A stretch of 64,000 bases of DNA from Candidatus Saccharimonadota bacterium. GTDB lineage: Bacteria; Patescibacteriota; Saccharimonadia; Saccharimonadales; UBA10212. The translations under genes were made by a program, and so were the position numbers. This document shows positions 2-61,551 of the stretch, piece after piece (positions within the stretch are counted from its first letter, which is position 1; every line of letters begins with the position of its first letter). A model generated the notes under the pieces. That model was not told where the DNA came from, made no database searches, and saw only the letters and a list, made by a program, of their open reading frames with translations. The stretch is from positions 11,989 to 75,988 of the forward strand of contig JACPKG010000022.1 of assembly GCA_016187175.1 (NCBI GenBank), written 5' to 3'.

Positions 2-421
2 GGCTCCGAGCAGGCGTATGTTGAGCCGCTGCAGCGTATTTCCAGCGATGTTTGGTTTAGGTTGGGAATTTCAGATTTTCCATCGGTGTACAACCAGATA
101 TCACCGAATCCAGTCGCTGCAGTGCCATCTCTGCACGTAGCTTGGGCAGTCCTTCTATTGATCTTTGTAGGCAAACTTTACGGCCGGCGTTGGGGAATGT
201 TGACTCTTTTTTATCCACTGCTACTCATTTTTGGGGTCGTATATCAAGGGGAGCATTATGTCTTTGACGTATTGGCCGGGATGGCCTACGCTCTGGGGGC
301 TTATGCCTCGGCACCTTATATTGTTCGTTTCAGCCACCGCAAGATTTCGCCGCTGCTGCAGCGCTATCGCCAGGCTAAACTGAAGGCCAAACAACGGATG
401 TACAGCGCTTCATCAAAATGA
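2..421 (+). CDS. PAP2-superfamily membrane phosphatase/phosphotransferase, C-terminal part (5' end outside window)
   Basis: The frame is open from base 2. PAP2-like motifs PSLHVAW and GEHYVFDVLAG sit in a hydrophobic context. Track ORF 62..421 is only the part after an in-frame TTG. Confidence 0.6.
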   Translation, partial: GSEQAYVEPLQRISSDVWFRLGISDFPSVYNQISPNPVAAVPSLHVAWAVLLLIFVGKLYGRRWGMLTLFYPLLLIFGVVYQGEHYVFDVLAGMAYALGAYASAPYIVRFSHRKISPLLQRYRQAKLKAKQRMYSASSK

Positions 422-17133: not shown

Positions 17134-17263
17134 TAAAACTCCTTTATACAAAAAATCCTTGGCCTAAAAATACCAAAGATCTATTACAAGCTAGTAGTTT
17201 GTAACCTCGGCGACATTATTAATCCGCCTCAGGCGGACGTCGCTGTCTTTGGCAACTAGCAAT

Positions 17264-17292
17264 AATCTAGCATATCTGCGGGGCGATGGCAA
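17264..17292 (-). promoter_or_regulatory. candidate sigma70-type promoter of rplJ-rplL (TTGCCA-17-TAGATT), followed by a ~125-nt leader
   Basis: Minus sense reads TTGCCAtcgccccgcagatatgcTAGATT. The leader contains the hairpin CCGCC-TGA-GGCGG and may be an L10-leader analogue. Confidence 0.4.
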
Positions 17293-21535: not shown

Positions 21536-22078
21536 CTAGACCCTCTTTACCTGTAGGCCGTCTAGCTCCACTGGGGTTTCGCGGCCAAACATATTAACCA
21601 ATACTTTAAGTTTACCCTTTTGGACGTCAATCTCGTTAATCGCGCCGTCAAAGCCCTTAAACGGACCATCAACTATATTGACTACTTCTCCGACCCGATA
21701 GTCAAATTTATGTTTGGGCTCTTCTCGACCCATGCGTTTCATGATTTTATTAATTTCGTCTTGCGATAATGGTGTTGGCTCGGTGCCTGTACCAACAAAA
21801 CCAGTGACGTTTGGGGTGTTGCGCACTATATACCAGGCATCTTCAGAAAGCTTCATTTCAACCAACACATAGCCTTGAAAGATGCGTTTCTCGACGATCT
21901 TACGCTTGCCATTTTTGATCTCAATCATTTTTTCCTTGGGCACTAAGACCTGAAAAATCTTGTCGCCCATGTCCAAAGAATCTGCCCGTTGACGGATACT
22001 CTCGGCCACCTTTTCTTCGTACCCACTATAGGTGTGAATAGCGTACCAATGCTTGGTCGAGTCGTATCGCTTAGCCAT
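21536..22078 (-). CDS. nusG: transcription termination/antitermination factor NusG
   Basis: NGN plus KOW domains (GEVVNIVDGPFKGFDG). The ATG at 22078 is preferred over the adjacent TTG at 22081. Confidence 0.95.
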   Translation of the reverse strand: MAKRYDSTKHWYAIHTYSGYEEKVAESIRQRADSLDMGDKIFQVLVPKEKMIEIKNGKRKIVEKRIFQGYVLVEMKLSEDAWYIVRNTPNVTGFVGTGTEPTPLSQDEINKIMKRMGREEPKHKFDYRVGEVVNIVDGPFKGFDGAINEIDVQKGKLKVLVNMFGRETPVELDGLQVKRV

Positions 22079-22136
22079 CAAACGCTCCTTCCAGTCGCTA
22101 TAGCTAAAAGTTGGAAGCCAAAAGCTAACTGGCTGT

Positions 22137-30972: not shown

Positions 30973-30998
30973 TGTTGATTCTCCTTGTCCTTAAATTT

Positions 30999-31024
30999 AA
31001 GAAACCGCCTTTTGGCGGTTTCTT
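30999..31024. terminator. perfect 11-bp hairpin AAGAAACCGCC-TTTT-GGCGGTTTCTT
   Basis: Located between rpsI and orf75; it is palindromic and so could act on either strand; the U-tract is partly inside the stem. Confidence 0.45.
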
Positions 31025-31166
31025 AAATATTCTCGAATTTTGATTTACGAACGCACAGAACAAACCGCCAAGCTGCTTGGTGTAAACCAATAGGCAAAAA
31101 CGGTCTGAAATTTACTCATTGAGAGAAGACTATATAGTTGGCTTGAAGTCTTGTCAATATTTTTGT

Positions 31167-31202
31167 GAGGTCCGACCTTTGCTTTTTCCTAGGTCGAACC
31201 TC
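31167..31202 (+). repeat. GAGGTCCGACC palindromic element, short (core-deleted) copy C
   Basis: GAGGTCCGACCTttgctttttcctAGGTCGAACCTC; lies 13 nt 3' of the rpsI stop. Confidence 0.65.
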
Positions 31203-34190: not shown

Positions 34191-34289
34191 AAACAGCCTC
34201 CAGCTGTAGAATTGGGAATTGTGAAACACGAAATACGAATTCTTGTTTCATGTTTCTTGTTTCATGTTTCATGAAAATGTTACACACTT

Positions 34290-34748
34290 TTAGTTCCTTT
34301 TCGCCTTTCGAGGTCGGGTGCCTCCGTGCGGAACACCAGTTACGTCCTTAATACTGTCAACTTCAATCCGCTGGGCCACTAGTGTTCTAATGGCTGCTTC
34401 TCGTCCTAGGCCGACTCCTTGAACAAAGACATCGACCCTACTGACTCCGAATGTTTTAGCCGCTGCCAAAGCCTTTTCGGCAGCGACCTGCGCGGCATAG
34501 GCTGTACCTTTTTTAGATCCGCGAAATCCAATACTACCAGCGCTGGATGATGCGAGAGTGTTACCTTTATCGTCTGTCACGGTAATGATCGTGTTATTAA
34601 AGGTCGCCAAAACATGCACCTGGGCGCGGCTAACACTGCGACGGACTTTTTTTCGCTTGGTAGCTTTAGGCTTTATCTCGGTTATGGAGGCTTGTTCGTC
34701 AGTCGCAGTTGGTATCACCTCATTCTTCATTCTGCCAATGCCTTGCAT
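34290..34748 (-). CDS. rpsK: 30S ribosomal protein uS11 (N-terminally extended)
   Basis: Canonical uS11 core from VHVLATFNNT onward. Confidence 0.93.
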   Translation of the reverse strand: MQGIGRMKNEVIPTATDEQASITEIKPKATKRKKVRRSVSRAQVHVLATFNNTIITVTDDKGNTLASSSAGSIGFRGSKKGTAYAAQVAAEKALAAAKTFGVSRVDVFVQGVGLGREAAIRTLVAQRIEVDSIKDVTGVPHGGTRPRKAKRN

Positions 34749-39952: not shown

Positions 39953-40222
39953 TTACCAGCTACTCTTAGTTACGCCTGGAATTTCGCCCTTGCTGGCATG
40001 CTCCCGAAAAGCGATTCGCGATAGTCCAAACTGTCGCATATAAGCCCTAGGTCGGCCAGTTTCGGTACAACGATTCTTCTGCCTGGTAGGGCTGCTGTTC
40101 CTAGGTAAACGCGCCAAACCTTCTAAGTCGCCGGTAGCCTTAAGCTCCGCCCGCCTGCGGGCGTACTTTTCAATCAGTTTTTGGCGTTTAGCATCTCTAG
40201 CCAACACCGATTTTTTAGCCAT
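39953..40222 (-). CDS. rpsN: 30S ribosomal protein uS14 (long, non-zinc form, 89 aa)
   Basis: Canonical uS14 ending GVTKSSW. Confidence 0.93.
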
Positions 40223-40318
40223 AGATGCTCCTTCCAGTCGCTTCAGGTACTAGTTTATAGGTGCTAGGTGCTAGAACCACGAACCTAGAATCTAAAACCT
40301 TATGATTTACGCAGTGAA

Positions 40319-42717: not shown

Positions 42718-43347
42718 TTGGGTTTCTCCTCGGTATATCCAGACTTTAACACCTATAATGCCAGCACCTGGGTATTGAGCCTTGGCACTAGCAAAGTCTA
42801 TATCGGCCCTAATCGTGTGCAACGGCACACTGCCCTGAACTTCTTTTTCACGCCGTGACATCTCATTACCGCCCAGGCGTCCGGCAATCTCGACACGAAC
42901 CCCTTTGGCTCCAGCCCGCATCGTGGCGGCGGCGGCGGATTTCATAGCTCGACGAAAAGCGATGCGTCGCTCTAGTTGGTGGGCAATATTTTCAGCAACC
43001 AATTTGGCTTGTAGTTCGGGGCGTTTGATTTCTTCGATATTTATCCTAACTGGTACCCCGTAAAGTCTTTCTATCTGCTCTTTCAGCTCAGTCGCGCCTG
43101 TACCGCCACGCCCAATCACTACACCGGCTTTAGCCGTCTGAATAGTAATCGTCACTAGGTTAGGCGACCGCTCAATGTCAACTTTACTGACCGCAGCTCT
43201 TGAGCCAAGTTTATTAAGAATTAATCTGCGAGCGGCAAGGTCGGCCGTCAGGTAGTTGGCATACTCTTTCTTATTGGCAAACCATTTACTGCGCCAGTCT
43301 TTGTTAACTTGGAGTCGCATACTGATGGGATTAATTTTCTGACCCAT
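42715..43347 (-). CDS. rpsC: 30S ribosomal protein uS3
   Basis: Canonical uS3. The start was trimmed to MGQKINPIS (43347), which has AAGGAG upstream. Confidence 0.95.
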   Translation of the reverse strand: MGQKINPISMRLQVNKDWRSKWFANKKEYANYLTADLAARRLILNKLGSRAAVSKVDIERSPNLVTITIQTAKAGVVIGRGGTGATELKEQIERLYGVPVRINIEEIKRPELQAKLVAENIAHQLERRIAFRRAMKSAAAATMRAGAKGVRVEIAGRLGGNEMSRREKEVQGSVPLHTIRADIDFASAKAQYPGAGIIGVKVWIYRGETQ

Positions 43348-43423
43348 CACACACTCCTTGCAGTCGCTTGAGGTGACAGGTTGTAGGTGACAGGTGACAG
43401 CTCGAACAGTGTTATAGGATAAA

Positions 43424-44130: not shown

Positions 44131-44239
44131 CTCTTCGCTCCTTCGTCGTTCGGTAACAAGTAACAAACAATAAGTAACAAGTTATATTTGATGAAATTAT
44201 GCAGCAGTCCTTGTTGCATGTTACATGTTGCCTGTTGCT

Positions 44240-44260
44240 TAAAAATGCTTTGCATTTTTA
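44240..44260. repeat. AT-rich stop-codon palindrome TAAAAATGC-n3-GCATTTTTA (rplB stop)
   Basis: 9-bp perfect inverted repeat that includes the rplB TAA. The same arms occur at 45496..45516. Confidence 0.65.
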
Positions 44261-45094
44261 TTTCCTTTTTCCTTGGTGTCGACTACGGACAATAAATTTA
44301 TTACTTGCCTTTCGGCGACGTGTTTTGTAGCCAAGAGTCTTTTGGCCCCAAGGTGTTGTGGGTGGGCGGGCCATCCTATGTCTACCACCATCACCACCGC
44401 CATGCGGATGGTCGGCGGCTGCCATTACCACACCACGCACAGTCGGACGGATACCCATGTGACGCTTACGGCCGGCTTTGCCTATTTGGACGTTCTGGTG
44501 TTGCTCATTGCCAACTTGACCAACTGAAGCCAGGCATTCGACACTGACCAGACGAACTTCACCACTTGGCAACCTTATTTGAGCCCATTCATGATCTTTA
44601 GCCACCAGTTGGGCTACGGCGCCGGCAGTGCGAGCCAGTTGTGCGCCTTTGCCAGGTTGTAGTTCAACAGCGTGAATTACCGTACCGTTAGGTATATTTT
44701 TAAGCGGTAGACGATTACCCCGTACAACAGGCGCTTCCTCCTCAACTACCAGTTTTCTACCCGGCTTCATCCCTTTAGTGGCCAGAATATAGTGGTATCG
44801 GCCATTTTGGTCCTTGATTCGGGCAATTCGCGCGCTGCGATTAGGATCATATTCTATATGCTCGACAACCGCTGATGTGCCTGATTCTAGCTTGAAGTCA
44901 ATCAGTCTTAAGTAGCGTCTCGCTCCGCCGCCGCGGTGGCGCGTGGTAATGCGGCCTTGATTATTACGGGCCACCGGACCTTTTTTAATTACCACCAGGC
45001 CTTTCAAAGGTTTCTTGACCGTAATAGCATCAAAGTCCTGACTGCTCATGCCGCGCCGCGCCGCTGTAACTGGTTTGTACTCTCTGACAGCCAT
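44258..45094 (-). CDS. rplB: 50S ribosomal protein uL2
   Basis: Canonical uL2. Confidence 0.96.
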   Translation of the reverse strand: MAVREYKPVTAARRGMSSQDFDAITVKKPLKGLVVIKKGPVARNNQGRITTRHRGGGARRYLRLIDFKLESGTSAVVEHIEYDPNRSARIARIKDQNGRYHYILATKGMKPGRKLVVEEEAPVVRGNRLPLKNIPNGTVIHAVELQPGKGAQLARTAGAVAQLVAKDHEWAQIRLPSGEVRLVSVECLASVGQVGNEQHQNVQIGKAGRKRHMGIRPTVRGVVMAAADHPHGGGDGGRHRMARPPTTPWGQKTLGYKTRRRKASNKFIVRSRHQGKRK

Positions 45095-45417: not shown

Positions 45418-45495
45418 CAGCTCTCTCCTTTCGCTGTAACAGGTAGCTAGTAATAAGTAACAAGCTATGTTGCCCGTTGCGTTTTACATGTTGCT

Positions 45496-45516
45496 TAAAA
45501 ATGCTACGCATTTTTA
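45496..45516. repeat. AT-rich stop-codon palindrome TAAAAATGC-n3-GCATTTTTA (rplD stop)
   Basis: Arms identical to 44240..44260. The rplD TAG lies in the loop, and the flanking AGCAACATGTAA is also shared. Confidence 0.65.
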
Positions 45517-46145
45517 GCTCCCAGCCATTCGTGGACAATATCAAGTGCTTTTTTGCTAATAACTATCTGGTCAGAGTTCAAGATGTCATAAACGCTCAGA
45601 AACTTGGCAGGAACAGCTTTAACTCGACTGATATTGCGGGTTGCACGTTCAACTAAGCTGTCTTTTTGGCTCACAACTAACAAAACGCTGCCATTGGCAC
45701 CAATCCTATTAAGTAGAGCAAGAGTTGGCTTAACCTTCCCATCGGGGCAGGCAAATGTTTCGATAACTATCAGTTTGTTTGAATCGGCCGCCAAGGTCAA
45801 TGCTTGGCGAATAGCCAGTCGCTTAGCCTGGGTACTAATTTTCCGACTGTAATTTTCCTTCCCACTCGGACCAAAAGCCACGCCACCCCCTGTCCAAATA
45901 GGATTACGAGACGAACCAAAGCGGGCCCGGCCGGTACCTTTTTGGCGCCATGGTTTAGCACCACCACCGCGAACATCGCCGCGCGTTCTAGCCTTAGCGA
46001 TATTCTTACGAGCGTTAGCCAGATGCGCTAAGTAGGCGTCCTTTAGTAATTGGTGGCTTTTAGCCTCCACACCAAAAATAGTCTTATCCAGCTTGACAGG
46101 AGATGACGCTTTAGCACCGGATTTTGTATATGTTGCCACAGCCAT
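45504..46145 (-). CDS. rplD: 50S ribosomal protein uL4
   Basis: Canonical uL4. The start was trimmed to [10 protein letters not shown] (46145), which has GAGGAG upstream. Confidence 0.95.
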
Positions 46146-50405: not shown

Positions 50406-52493
50406 TTACTTACCGGATTTGGCAATGATACCTTCAGCGACGTTTGATGGCACATCGGCGTAATGATCCAGTTCCATGCTACTGCTGGCCCTACCCTGCG
50501 TAGAGCTACGCAAAGATGTGGTGTAGCCAAACATTTCGCCAAGTGGGACATAGGCGGTAATTTCTTTGATGCCGGATGAAAGATCTTCCATAGACTCCAC
50601 CCGGCCACGCTTGGAATTAAGATCGCCGATTACGTCGCCCATAAAGGCTTCGGGCACCACCACGACGATTTTCATGATGGGCTCAAGAAGCACCGGAGCA
50701 GACTTTTTAAAAGCATCTTGAAAGGCCATAGACCCGGCAATTTTAAAGGCTACTTCGCTACTGTCCACGTCGTGGTAGCTGCCGTCATACAGTTCAACTT
50801 TGACGTCTACGACTGGATAGCCAGCAATTACGCCGTTAGCCATGGCCTCTTCAATACCAGTCCGCGCCGCCGGGATAAATTCGCTGGGGATGGCGCCGCC
50901 TTTAATTCTGTTGATGAACTCAAAGCCGGCGCCGGTTTCGTTTTGGAAAAGCCTTAGCCAGACATGGCCGTATTGGCCACGGCCTCCAGTCTGGCGAATG
51001 TACTTACCTTCGGCTTCAACTCCGTCTTTACGGATGGTTTCACGATAAGCCACTTGTGGCTGACCGACGTTAGCCTCAACTGCAAATTCACGTTTCATGC
51101 GGTCGACAATGATTTCCAGGTGCAGCTCACCCATGCCGGAAATTATAGTTTGGCCTGTTTCGGTGTCTGACTTAATCCTAAAGGTCGGATCTTCTTCGGC
51201 TAGACGTGATAGAGCTATGGCCATTTTTTCTTGATCGGCTTTAGTCTTCGGCTCAATAGCGATACTAACTGGCGGTTCCGGAAAAGTGATGCTTTCTAGC
51301 AGTATCGGATGCGTTGGATCACAAAGAGTATTGCCAGTGGTTGTGCCTTTTAGGCCGACTATGGCCGCTATGTCGCCGGCGTCCACATGAGAAACGTCCT
51401 CGCGCTTGTCGGCATGCAGGCGTACGATACGGCCGACACGCTCTTTATCGCCAGTCGAACTGTTTAAGATATAGCTACCGGCTGTGATCTTGCCAGAGTA
51501 AACTCGGAAAAAGGCCAGCTTACCAACAAAGGGATCAGTTGCTATCTTGAAGGCTAGCGCGGCAAACGGTTCGGCGGGATCGGGCTGGCGTTCGATTTCA
51601 TCTCCGTTTTTAGGATTGGTTCCCCAAGTCGATCCTCTGTCCAGCGGTGAAGGTAGGAAATCAGTAATAGCATCCAGTAATTTTTCAGCAATCACGCCGC
51701 GGCCATCTCCTCCCGAAACGACAAAAAACTTACCCGTCAGAACAGCTGTTCGAATAGCCTGTTTAACTTCTTCTTCGCTCAACCCGTCCTCGCCGACTTC
51801 AAAATACTTCTCAAGGGTTTTTTCGTCCTCGGCGACAGCGTTTTCGACAAGCAGCGAGCGATATTTTTTGACTTTATCGATCATTTCGGCCGGAATTTCT
51901 CCTTCAACTAAATTCTTATCCGTGAAGTCTTTGTAGGAATAGGCTTTCATCGTGATCAGATCTACCACGCCTGTAATAGATTGTTCAAAACCAATTGGCA
52001 GATGGATTGGGAACGCGCGCTTGGAAAGCCGGTGGTGAATAGAATCTAAACTTTTATAAAAATCACCGCCGGTTTGGTTAATCTTATTTATAAAGCAAAT
52101 ACGCGGTACTCCGTATCTATCGGCCTGCCGCCAGACGGTTTCAGATTGACTCTCCACGCCCATCTTACCATCAAAAACCACAACCGCGCCATCTAGTACA
52201 CGTAAGCTGCGCTCAACCTCAACCGTGAAGTCAATGTGGCCCGGCGTATCAATAATGTTAATTTTTTTATCTTTCCAAAAACAAGTCACAGCAGCAGCCG
52301 TAATGGTGATGCCGCGTTCTTTCTCCTGGGCCATCCAGTCGGTTGTGGTATCGCCAGCATGGACTTCGCCAATTTTGTGCTTTAAGCCCGTGCGGTAAAG
52401 AATAGCTTCGGTGGTTGTCGTCTTGCCAGCATCAATATGGGCAATAATCCCGATGTTTCTAACCTTCTCTAGTTCGTATTTTTTATCTGCCAT
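50406..52493 (-). CDS. fusA: elongation factor G
   Basis: Canonical EF-G ([17 protein letters not shown], domains I-V). Confidence 0.98.
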
Positions 52494-52528
52494 AAATTAG
52501 CTCCTAGCTATTAGCTCATAGCTATTAG

Positions 52529-52765
52529 CTATTGCATCCTTTGTCGTAAACTTGCAGCCGTAGTATAAATAGCAAAAATGGCGGTTCTACCAACACAGCT
52601 CCCAAATGCTTTGTAAAATTCCCATTGACTACCTAGAACCCCTTTATCTGCAAATCGTTTATGTTCAGTTTTCCATCTTTCTACTTCGTCGTGGTATCTG
52701 AAATACGATGTGTCCATACGAGTCCCACTTGCCAACATTCTTTGTCGCCTTTCTTCCAAATTCAT
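52529..52765 (-). CDS. hypothetical 78-aa protein, translationally coupled to rpsG (TGATG overlap)
   Basis: The ATG shares its A with the rpsG TGA stop; no motif recognised; hydrophobic C-terminal segment. Confidence 0.5.
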   Translation of the reverse strand: MNLEERRQRMLASGTRMDTSYFRYHDEVERWKTEHKRFADKGVLGSQWEFYKAFGSCVGRTAIFAIYTTAASLRQRMQ

Positions 52766-53244
52766 CAGGTCCTCGCGAAATGGGCGAAGGCCCTGTTGGC
52801 TTCGGCCATTTTATGGACGTCTTCCTTTTTCTTCACGGCCGCACCGGTGTTGTTATAAGCGTCAACTAATTCTTGGGCTATACGATCTTCCATGCTCATA
52901 CCCTTACGGTCACGCGCGGCAGCAACGAACCACAAAATTGTCAGGTGCTGCTGGCGCTGGCCTTTAACCTCAAAAGGAATCTGGTAGTTAGCGCCGCCAA
53001 CCCGCCGCGAACGTGTTTCTAGATAGGGTTGAACATTTTTGAAAGCTTGATCAAGAACTTCTAATGGATTTTGAACTTTGAGTTTATTGGCCGCCTTTTG
53101 CATACCACCGTATACCAGTCGTTCAGCTAGTTGTTTTTTGCCGCCCAGCATAACACGATTAATCAATTTAGCAATTTGCTGGCTGTTATACAGCCGGTCT
53201 GGCTCAACATCCCGTACAAGCGACTTGGTAGTTTTTCTAGGCAC
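52765..53244 (-). CDS. rpsG: 30S ribosomal protein uS7
   Basis: Canonical uS7; GTG start with AAGGAG upstream. Confidence 0.96.
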   Translation of the reverse strand: MPRKTTKSLVRDVEPDRLYNSQQIAKLINRVMLGGKKQLAERLVYGGMQKAANKLKVQNPLEVLDQAFKNVQPYLETRSRRVGGANYQIPFEVKGQRQQHLTILWFVAAARDRKGMSMEDRIAQELVDAYNNTGAAVKKKEDVHKMAEANRAFAHFART

Positions 53245-53307
53245 CGGACGCTCCTTGCAGTCGCTTAAAATTCAAATACCAAACATCAAGCATCAGATCA
53301 CGCTTAA

Positions 53308-53387
53308 GAGGTCCGACCTGGTAAAAAGATAGGTAAAATCTAGTGATTTTGCCTAAAATCTCTTTGCTTTTTACAAGGTCGGACCTC
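53308..53387 (+). repeat. GAGGTCCGACC palindromic element, copy A (80 bp, rpsL-rpsG spacer)
   Basis: 21-nt arms GAGGTCCGACCTGGTAAAAAG / CTTTTTACAAGGTCGGACCTC. The core GTAAAATCTAGTGATTTTGC is shared with copy B. Confidence 0.8.
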
Positions 53388-53447
53388 CCGCAAAGAAAGC
53401 TGCTTGAAGTTTGAAATTTGAAGTTTGAAATTTGAGTATGGGACATC

Positions 53448-53858
53448 CTATTTTCCTTTTTTGGCCCCATACTTTGAGCGCCCTTGCTTACGGTCAGAAA
53501 CACCTTGTAGATCAAGATTGCCGCGGACAATATGATAGCGCACACCAGGCAAATCCTTAACTCGTCCGCCACGCACTAATACAACGGCGTGTTCTTGTAA
53601 GTTATGGCCTTCACCACCAATATAGGCCCAGACTTCGTGGCCGTTAGTCAAGCGCACGCGGGCAACTTTACGCAGCGCTGAGTTCGGTTTTCTAGGAGTC
53701 TTGGTAGTTACGCGAATACAAACTCCGCGTTTAAAAGGTGACGCTTTTTCGTAACTCTTAGTCTTGAGATTGTTGACCACGCGCTGCAAAGCCGGCGACT
53801 TGGTTTTGCCTCGGGAAATGGTTCTTGGCTTTCGGACTAGTTGATTAACTGTTGGCAA
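53448..53858 (-). CDS. rpsL: 30S ribosomal protein uS12
   Basis: Canonical uS12; TTG start with GGAGG 7 nt upstream. Confidence 0.96.
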
Positions 53859-61318: not shown

Positions 61319-61424
61319 ATACTAAACTCCCTACTCAATTAGTTTGCCGCGCGAAGCCCACTACGTTAGGCGTAACAATACTGTCATACACAGCAACGCC
61401 AAAGTACACTACTTCTTGCATACT

Positions 61425-61453
61425 AGAGTACAGAGTTAAGAGTTACGAGTCAA
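61425..61453 (-). promoter_or_regulatory. candidate rpoBC promoter TTGACT-17-TACTCT
   Basis: Minus sense reads TTGACTcgtaactcttaactctgTACTCT, about 100 nt upstream of rpoB and just downstream of repeat copy B. Confidence 0.4.
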
Positions 61454-61469: not shown

Positions 61470-61551
61470 GAGGTCCGACCTTGTAAAAAGATGTGTAAAA
61501 TCTGGTGATTTTGCAAAAAAATCACTCTTGCTTTTTGCAAGGTCGGACCTC
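61470..61551 (+). repeat. GAGGTCCGACC palindromic element, copy B (82 bp, clpP-rpoB spacer)
   Basis: 21-nt arms GAGGTCCGACCTTGTAAAAAG / CTTTTTGCAAGGTCGGACCTC; inner hairpin GTGATTTT-n5-AAAATCAC; starts 8 nt after the clpP stop. Confidence 0.8.

Follow-up and report, generated by a model that had tools for sequence, protein, structure and literature searches.

The window analyzed here, a 64-kb stretch (64,000 nucleotides) of contig JACPKG010000022.1 from a Candidatus Saccharimonadota genome assembly (GCA_016187175.1), carries three copies, referred to as A, B, and C, of the palindromic intergenic repeat that is the subject of this work. NCBIfam matches confirmed that the surrounding genes are all encoded on the minus strand, in the order tig, clpP, copy B, rpoB, rpoC, rpsL, copy A, rpsG, and fusA in one region and rplM, rpsI, copy C, and, further on, trpS in the other. 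Copy A (53308-53387, minus strand) is a full-length 80-nt inverted doublet in the rpsL-rpsG spacer, with an nhmmer score of 78.5 bits and a folding energy of -41.5 kcal/mol (z -6.9). Its first arm (GAGGTCCGACCTGGTAAAAAG on the plus strand, 53308-53328) has the core GAGGTC-C-GACCT of a repetitive extragenic palindromic (REP) unit, its second arm (CTTTTTACAAGGTCGGACCTC on the plus strand) lies at 53367-53387, and an inner hairpin with an AAAATC/GATTTT core, two pairs of which covary across the family, is found at 53330-53355. The GCAAAG-first orientation, taken as forward, corresponds for copy A to the minus strand, which is also the sense strand of the flanking genes. Copy B (61470-61551, minus strand) is a full-length 82-nt doublet (nhmmer score, 72.6 bits) located 7 nt past the clpP stop codon and upstream of a conserved rpoB promoter-like site, with its inner hairpin (GTAAAATC-TGGT-GATTTTGC on the plus strand) at 61495-61514. 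Copy C (31167-31202, minus strand), on the other hand, is a 36-nt form (-22.4 kcal/mol, z -6.0) located 12 nt past the rpsI stop codon, in which the arms are joined by 12 nt and which gives only a partial nhmmer match. Read on the minus strand as GAGGTTCGACCTAGGAAAAAGCAAAG|GTCGGACCTC, it has its junction at an AAG microhomology and retains the GCAAAG of the 5' core, so that it derives from a full copy by internal deletion and has the same orientation as A and B. The first-pass annotation of this DNA had reported the three copies in a single orientation, with 21-nt inverted arms and a common core containing an inner hairpin in A and B, and had taken C for a core-deleted derivative; our analyses bear this out, apart from the gaps of 8 and 13 nt to the upstream stop codons that it gave for B and C, which are 7 and 12 nt.

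Within the window, GAGGTCCGACC with at most one mismatch occurs seven times against 0.35 expected, a count that none of 100 shuffles reached, and six of the seven matches are arms of copies A, B, and C. The 21-nt arms are 95% complementary in both A and B, and the two cores share 88% identity across 51 nt. Folding of the three copies gave z-scores of -4.4 to -9.2 on either strand, and the minimum free energy of the 80-nt doublets is -38 to -44 kcal/mol. None of the three is followed by a T-run on either strand, in line with the earlier view that they are not classical terminators; no promoter-like site was scored within A or B; and at the gathering threshold Rfam gave no match at the copies, the only hits being generic microRNA-hairpin models far under threshold. 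The peptide RSDLVK, which the first-pass annotation had explained as the repeat in translation, is indeed obtained by reading AGG TCC GAC CTT GTA AAA from the arm.

The arm pattern was scanned against representative genomes and metagenome contigs, and an nhmmer profile was then run over all fetched loci (given below as L numbers). The public scans contain 29 distinct full-length copies (78-82 nt) from about 24 contigs, plus short forms, making this a genuine dispersed palindromic repeat family with deletion variants, as had been proposed. Nearly all full-length copies come from Saccharibacteria-like contigs, and short forms are also present in a Curtissbacteria metagenome-assembled genome (MAG). 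The highest density is five copies in 12 kb (L023); at least three are found in MAG JACPKF01 (L009, L056, and L059), as there are three in the 64-kb window, and the arm pattern was absent from a viral contig collection. Several single-arm matches in other phyla are the REP unit GAGGTC(C/G)GACCTC as isolated perfect palindromes. A Logan contig from a groundwater run (L074) is 99.7% identical to positions 51825-53350 of the window and terminates inside copy A, which is an assembly break of the kind caused by repeats. Homologs of the S7 protein encoded in the window bear the names Saccharibacteria, Saccharimonadales, or Patescibacteria. Core subfamilies are common to several genomes; concerted evolution, under which cores would cluster by genome, was considered and rejected, mean core identity being 0.72 within and 0.69 between genomes.

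In the family alignment, a full copy consists of two arms of about 21 nt, complementary at 95-100%, around a conserved spacer of 38-40 nt with its own small hairpin, and the arm is built around the REP unit GAGGTC-(C/G)-GACCT(C/T), which is self-complementary in the standard arm. The outer 21-bp helix is 95% paired and has nine pairs changed on both sides, and the 6-bp inner hairpin (AAAATC/GATTTT) shows exchanges between UA and CG at pairs 44:51 and 45:50; none of 500 shuffles reached the observed covariation, which collapsed in slid-partner controls. The arms fall into six subfamilies, each with mutually compensated arms (GAGGTCCGACC, GGGGTCTGTCC, GAGGACCATCC, GCGGACCATTC, GAGGTCGATCA, and GAGCTCAGTCC). 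Ten of the 29 copies are perfectly paired; in the others, the stem mismatches counted by element orientation comprise 12 G-U, 17 A-C, and 19 of other types, and relative to the transcript about 7 are G-U versus about 8 A-C. These mismatches look like neutral decay from perfectly paired masters rather than selection on one RNA strand. Some copies on the same contig have identical or 92%-identical cores but different arms (L023:8890-8969/10181-10260 and L048:1887-1967/9815-9895), and the copy at L023:10181 is a chimera, its left arm being standard and its right arm variant. Such cases suggest that copies recombine with, or convert, one another.

Every copy is intergenic or reaches no further into a gene than its final codons. 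With respect to flanking genes, 19 have a co-directional context, 5 a convergent one, and 2 an apparently divergent one (uncertain), and among those between co-directional genes 12 are sense and 7 antisense. Outside the window, the neighbors are unrelated housekeeping genes (pnp, udg, rnj, truB, tyrS, prfA, rplS, an ABC transporter, prs, pgk/tpiA, and a pilB-like ATPase), so that the initial description of the repeats as lying in spacers of highly expressed operons is an artifact of a window rich in ribosomal-protein genes. At the ends of 27 copies, target-site duplication was sought: matching dinucleotides were seen in 3 of the 27, which is the chance level, and nothing longer, nor did these copies have a constant flanking tetranucleotide, the bases next to the arms being variable. 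No U-tract follows any of 19 oriented copies. In many cases, a mere 3-23 nt separate the element from the next gene's Shine-Dalgarno sequence or start codon, so that these copies must be transcribed through.

Occupancy of orthologous sites is variable. The synteny from rpoB to rpsG is conserved among relatives, and the conserved rpoB promoter and leader follow the clpP site in all genomes compared. Just past clpP, the window has a full copy in sense orientation, L056 (JACPKF01) a full, oppositely oriented copy whose arms are variant, and L012 a short form that overlaps the stop codon, and the site is empty in L052/53 and L055. In the rpsL-rpsG spacer, copy A is present in the window and in the 99.7%-identical contig L074; the two genes abut (TAATG) in L052-54, which are the closest relatives with a long contig fetched (S7 91% identical), and other relatives have unrelated spacers. 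Empty sites, which the first-pass annotation had suggested looking for in related strains, thus exist at both positions.

The arm of the element is also the unit found on either side of a group of transposase genes. The first lead, no more than that, came from tblastn searches with IS200 TnpA and Escherichia coli REP-associated tyrosine transposase (RAYT) queries, which flagged L029, and it was then verified by Pfam, NCBIfam, and a fold search. Of about 35 independent loci retrieved solely for containing the arm pattern, 3 have a Y1_Tnp gene; L029, L039, L005, and L050, all fetched by the arm pattern only, each encode a Pfam Y1_Tnp protein of about 205 aa. On either side of the L050 gene lies ACAGAGGTCCGACCTCCGTACAGAGGTCGGACCTCTGT, in which the outer arm of the 80-nt element recurs exactly, as an inverted doublet. 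Homologs of the L050 protein, fetched by protein similarity alone (L069/70, 66% identical; L071, 58%; L072/73, 51%), are in three of three cases flanked by GAGGTC(C/G)GACCTC units with differing outer stems, as are L050/L075, and these RAYT-flanking units have stems of 9-10 bp (e.g. ACAGAGGTC-G-GACCTCTGT and TTACGAGGTC-G-GACCTCGTAA). The sole NCBIfam match of the Y1 proteins is NF047646, REP-associated tyrosine transposase (E ~1e-10), at about 40 bits and so below the NCBIfam cut-off of 80 bits. The HUH and YIHLNP motifs are kept, with the HUH and Y motifs invariant, and the best match in the Protein Data Bank (PDB) to an AlphaFold model (pLDDT 91.9) is 4ER8, the E. coli RAYT-REP complex (E 9e-7, TM 0.68 on target), which outscored the IS608 and ISDra2 TnpA transposases; a PDB sequence search with the RAYT profile was uninformative. 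No tnpB was found next to the RAYT-like genes. Single copy number at one conserved site, the NCBIfam match, the motifs, and the predicted fold together place the associated protein as a putative RAYT rather than an IS200/IS605 TnpA. The RAYT genes flanked by GAGGTC(C/G)GACCTC also carry the unit within their own coding sequence (L050:1905-1925, L069:431, and L072:10172), where it encodes E-V-R/G-P-R-E/K-K inside a 7-aa insertion relative to other RAYT types; the in-gene unit of L050 is identical to the left arm of the 80-nt element at 20 of 21 positions. A unit in this position could allow autoregulation.

In Saccharibacteria, our searches recovered RAYT-like genes of more than one type. The type-1 gene is a single-copy gene at one conserved site, folD-murI-murD-RAYT-response regulator, in at least five genomes (L029/L039, JACPKF01, the complete genome CP064993, and L063-68), and is always flanked by TGTGAnAGGTnnnACCTnTCACA units. 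Upstream of it lies an inverted doublet of 23 + 38..60 + 23 nt, with the architecture and size of the 80-nt element, and the ATG of the gene falls inside the second unit of this doublet (..TCAC|ATG). The core of the type-1 unit varies by genome and in L039 is AGGTCCGTCCT, one base off the arm of the 80-nt element. Comparing L029:3963-4704 with L039:12-755, the murD-like and murI sequences are near-identical, the RAYT alleles are 66% identical, and the flanking REP cores differ (AGATCTGATCT versus AGGTCCGTCCT), such that a RAYT and its REPs seem to behave as one cassette, by exchange or by co-evolution. The type-3 RAYT-like gene (L005, and a second gene in L059) is flanked by YTRCAAGG-N5-CCTTGYAR.

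In view of the anatomy and distribution of the element, the missing target duplication, sites that are occupied in some genomes and not in others, and an arm identical to a unit that flanks RAYT genes, we consider that copies A, B, and C are probably members of a REP/REPIN-type family of Saccharibacteria and other Patescibacteria, that is, REPIN-like doublets (REP doublets forming hairpins) of a REP family associated with RAYTs. In single-stranded form, the DNA of the doublet would fold into a hairpin that could be recognized, cut, and reinserted in trans by a REP-associated tyrosine (HUH/Y1) transposase, new copies landing in short spacers between genes, in many cases immediately after a stop codon or on the tip of a hairpin already present in the spacer, with no target duplication; copies would later decay, drop the core by microhomology deletion (like C), or vanish. 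That a RAYT mobilizes the family in the Saccharibacteria with the 80-nt form, and that its copies have any effect on RNA, is what we infer from this arrangement. Because the copies fill spacers inside and between operons, they are transcribed, and a transcribed copy would add to the mRNA a hairpin of about -40 kcal/mol with a 21-bp stem, which by analogy with REP, ERIC, and Correia sequences would be expected to act as an RNase III site or a barrier to 3'-exonucleases.

Several observations weigh against this interpretation. No RAYT gene flanked by GAGGTCCGACC was found among the fetched loci in any genome with the 80-nt form, the type-3 RAYT loci are free of 80-nt copies, and the 64-kb window has no Y1 gene. 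The best 120 matches to the L050 clade include no Saccharibacteria among the source-given names, most of these matches being nameless. JACPKF01 has two RAYT-like genes, flanked by AGGTTWAACCT and CAAGGATWATCCTTG, but its 80-nt copies have AGGTCCGACCT arms. In the variant arm subfamilies, the self-palindrome is weak or absent, and the exact arm pattern gives one to three matches per representative genome, so that copy number looks low next to that of classical REPs. Other points on this side would fit selection by the host: the core of copy A is 97% identical to that of an L009 copy at a different locus, cores are 95-97% identical between genomes whose S7 proteins are only 87% identical, and the site between pnp and udg, which includes a small open reading frame (ORF), carries an identically oriented copy in L002, L009, and L023, although the sequence flanking this udg-upstream site has diverged among the three. 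The small ORF at this site encodes a conserved membrane protein and ends inside the arm in all three genomes, in frames that differ by genome (...KRSDLVKR* and ...KRGPTLEKGR*), so that the C-terminal residues and stop codon come from the element.

These last points are among those that would speak for a cis-acting RNA or DNA structure maintained by the host, such as an intercistronic hairpin involved in processing or stability, an operon insulator, a non-canonical terminator, or an RNase III site, for which a mobile origin would be irrelevant today. The hairpins are very stable and covary in two helices, B and C lie exactly between a gene end and a promoter-like site, and in the sense RNA copy A caps a longer stem with G-U pairs, formed by low-complexity halves at 53403-53423 (5' half) and 53271-53291 (3' half) on the minus strand, the whole rpsL-rpsG spacer folding with -71.9 kcal/mol (z -7.2). 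However, the core is asymmetric and yet occurs in both orientations (12 sense versus 7 antisense), and relative to the transcript the mismatches show no excess of G-U over A-C, both of which also disfavor a strand-specific RNA role. The closest relatives lack the element at both rpsL-rpsG and clpP-rpoB, rpsL and rpsG simply abutting; the clpP site of another genome has an inverted copy with different arms; there is no U-tract, although a canonical terminator is found nearby in the same genome; and the flanking genes are unrelated. We consider such a host structure unlikely as the primary explanation and rank it as a secondary or minority reading, while noting that a host function would be compatible with REP/REPIN membership as a secondary effect. 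Related to this, and slightly less likely still, the 80-nt doublet could be a domesticated REPIN without a cognate RAYT, near-invariant across genera in core operons, at orthologous and non-orthologous spacers alike, and serving as a structured intercistronic module (RNase III site or insulator).

With inverted ends of 21 nt, a small size, a position between genes, and deletion variants, the element would also match the description of a classical miniature inverted-repeat transposable element (MITE) of the Correia or RUP kind, i.e. a deletion derivative of a DDE-type insertion sequence (IS) moved via its terminal inverted repeats, and an IS1595-type DDE transposase is indeed present at one locus of a related genome (L067). 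This origin is nonetheless improbable, since 24 of the 27 copies have no direct duplication of 2 nt or more, the three 2-nt matches being attributable to chance, the fetched loci, about 710 kb in all, yielded no larger element with these ends, and the arm is identical to the unit flanking Y1 transposase genes. Moreover, changes at the variable positions of the arms are compensated, and the outer GAGG and inner TTG..AAAAAG are fixed, a better fit to recognition of a hairpin than to binding of duplex ends. A marginally weaker case can be made for paired operators of a dimeric DNA-binding protein, in which each arm (AGGTC-C-GACCT) would be a palindromic half-operator and the two sites would lie about 70 bp apart. 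In favor of it, the standard arm can pair with itself (GAGGTC-C-GACCT), and many contigs contain the 13-mer as a perfect palindrome standing alone, but these isolated palindromes are REP units beside RAYT genes, the sites lie after genes as often as before them, and the flanking genes have no common theme. The variant arms GGGGTCTGTCC, GAGCTCAGTCC, and GAGGTCGATCA lose the self-palindrome and keep the arm-to-arm complementarity, on which ground we rejected the arm as a palindromic protein-binding site. With only three copies in 64 kb, coincidence or a duplication confined to the window might be supposed, but both are refuted by the shuffled controls and by dozens of copies in independent genomes and metagenomes. 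Two further candidates were dismissed: a DNA-uptake sequence, as the 11-mer is almost confined to the elements, and a composite transposon at udg in L023, where two inverted copies flank udg but udg and its neighbors are ordinary housekeeping genes.

The terms REPIN and RAYT are used here as defined in Pseudomonas fluorescens and E. coli (PMC3116915, PMC5581495). As in those systems, two inverted short palindromic units surround a short conserved spacer and form one long hairpin; the elements are dispersed, extragenic, present in both orientations, and without target duplication, with singlets and deletion derivatives; the unit stands on both sides of a Y1/HUH gene, the type-1 gene being single-copy and syntenic in Saccharibacteria; and the predicted protein fold is nearest to that of the E. 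coli RAYT (4ER8). On the other hand, the 80-nt family lacks the GTAG or CGTC 5' tetranucleotide that marks the E. coli and Pseudomonas REP super-families (PMC3733652), a tag that defines certain super-families and not RAYT association. It also differs in that the self-palindrome of an arm spans no more than 5-6 bp and disappears in variant arms, copy number seems low (a few per 10-60 kb at most), the proteins fall under the NCBIfam RAYT cut-off, the RAYT-like genes found in Saccharibacteria have related but different units, and the host is a Candidate Phyla Radiation (CPR) genome.

Similarities extend to Correia elements of Neisseria and to ERIC/IRU (enterobacterial repetitive intergenic consensus/intergenic repeat unit) sequences of enterobacteria, which are likewise imperfect palindromes of about 80-150 bp in transcribed intergenic regions, in both orientations, with internal-deletion variants and long RNA hairpins. 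RNase III or RNase E acts on the Correia and ERIC hairpins, which change the stability of adjoining mRNA. Correia elements have 26-bp terminal inverted repeats, a TA target duplication, and promoter and integration host factor sites, whereas the 80-nt family has no target duplication and no promoter-like site scored inside A or B; ERIC is not known to have a transposase. The resemblance to Correia, REP, and MITE-type elements put forward in the first-pass annotation therefore stands for REP, the arm being the unit that flanks RAYT-type genes, but not for MITE or Correia elements, given the missing target duplication in 27 copies. With the palindrome-associated elements (PATEs) derived from IS200/IS605, and with the mechanism of the IS608 and ISDra2 TnpA, the family shares a Y1 HUH enzyme acting on a single-strand hairpin, as it would here, and the absence of target duplication, and the associated proteins have the predicted TnpA fold. 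However, the subterminal hairpins of IS200/IS605 ends are asymmetric, and a fixed target of 4-5 nt precedes the left end on its 5' side, whereas the 80-nt family has no constant flanking tetranucleotide and the associated genes are single-copy and syntenic, not multicopy IS. Integron attC sites are also imperfect palindromes (57-141 bp) located right past stop codons and recognized as folded single strands, but they were rejected as an explanation on inspection, because the RYYYAAC/GTTRRRY boxes are absent and the neighbors are core housekeeping genes rather than cassettes; no integrase was seen either.

Other features of the window lie close to the copies. The rpoB promoter-like site downstream of copy B (TTGACT-17-TACTCT, 61425-61453, minus strand) is conserved in relatives with and without copy B, as judged from aligned spacers of the window, L052, L055, L056, and L012. 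In the four relatives it is followed, as in the window, by a conserved rpoB 5' leader (AAGAAGTAGTGTACTTTGGCG ... ACGCCTAACGTAGTGGGCTTCGC..GCGGCAAAC, approximately 61319-61424, minus strand), into which L056 has an extra hairpin inserted; this may be an undescribed leader RNA. Nine nucleotides downstream of copy C, a promoter-like site read from the sequence (TTGACA-17-TATAGT, 31129-31157, minus strand) opens a region (30994-31157, minus strand) that continues with an ORF of 24 codons rich in aromatic residues (MSKFQTVFAYWFTPSSLAVCSVRS) and a canonical terminator (AAACCGCCAAAAGGCGGTTTCTT); a 75-aa ORF and trpS lie downstream of it. The region has a weak match to the Rfam Phe_leader (34.5 bits, gathering score 55) and may be a leader-peptide attenuator. 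A known element, the L10_leader of Rfam, matches with 50.7 bits upstream of rplJ (17141-17270, minus strand).

The window also contains a second intergenic repeat family (34244-34297, 44212-44265, and 45468-45521; also L056:9893-10003), located directly past stop codons in ribosomal-protein operons. Its small A/T-rich hairpin, TAAAAATGCAAAGCATTTTTAAGCAA, is followed by low-complexity repeats of the GCAACA/TGTTAC type that are able to pair into a long imperfect stem, and the TAAAAATGCAAAGCATTTTTAAGCAA motif occupies the rpsL-rpsG spacer in a relative without copy A. Directly 5' of several start codons, including that of rpsG, lies a motif longer than a plain Shine-Dalgarno sequence, AAGCGACTG(C/G)AAGGAG (53245-53266, 43332-43369, 22063-22100, and 40212-40246, minus strand). 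Compared with the bacterial model of 124 aa, the S12 protein of this lineage (53448-53858, minus strand) is longer, at 136 aa, and carries an insertion of about 13 aa.

A literature search for the element sequence returned only an unrelated pig quantitative PCR primer and nothing relevant on palindromic intergenic repeats of Saccharibacteria. "Undescribed", as the repeat was first called, is accordingly correct for this family, for which there is no Rfam match and no paper was found, but not for the kind of element, which is well known; what appear to be new are the family and the host group. To our knowledge, REP/REPIN-RAYT systems have been studied almost only in Proteobacteria, and our literature search found no paper linking RAYT or REPIN to Patescibacteria or CPR. 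From a practical point of view, the copies disrupt assemblies, as where L074 ends in copy A, and create spurious small ORFs (the RSDLVK peptides and the C-termini of the small membrane protein), and they mark strain-level insertion polymorphisms that are useful for typing MAGs. Through their position inside the str operon and beside the rpoB promoter, they may influence the expression of core genes. Saccharibacteria are episymbionts with genomes of roughly 1 Mb, and a REPIN-like family together with syntenic RAYT-like genes would show that long-lived intragenomic replicators can persist under extreme streamlining.

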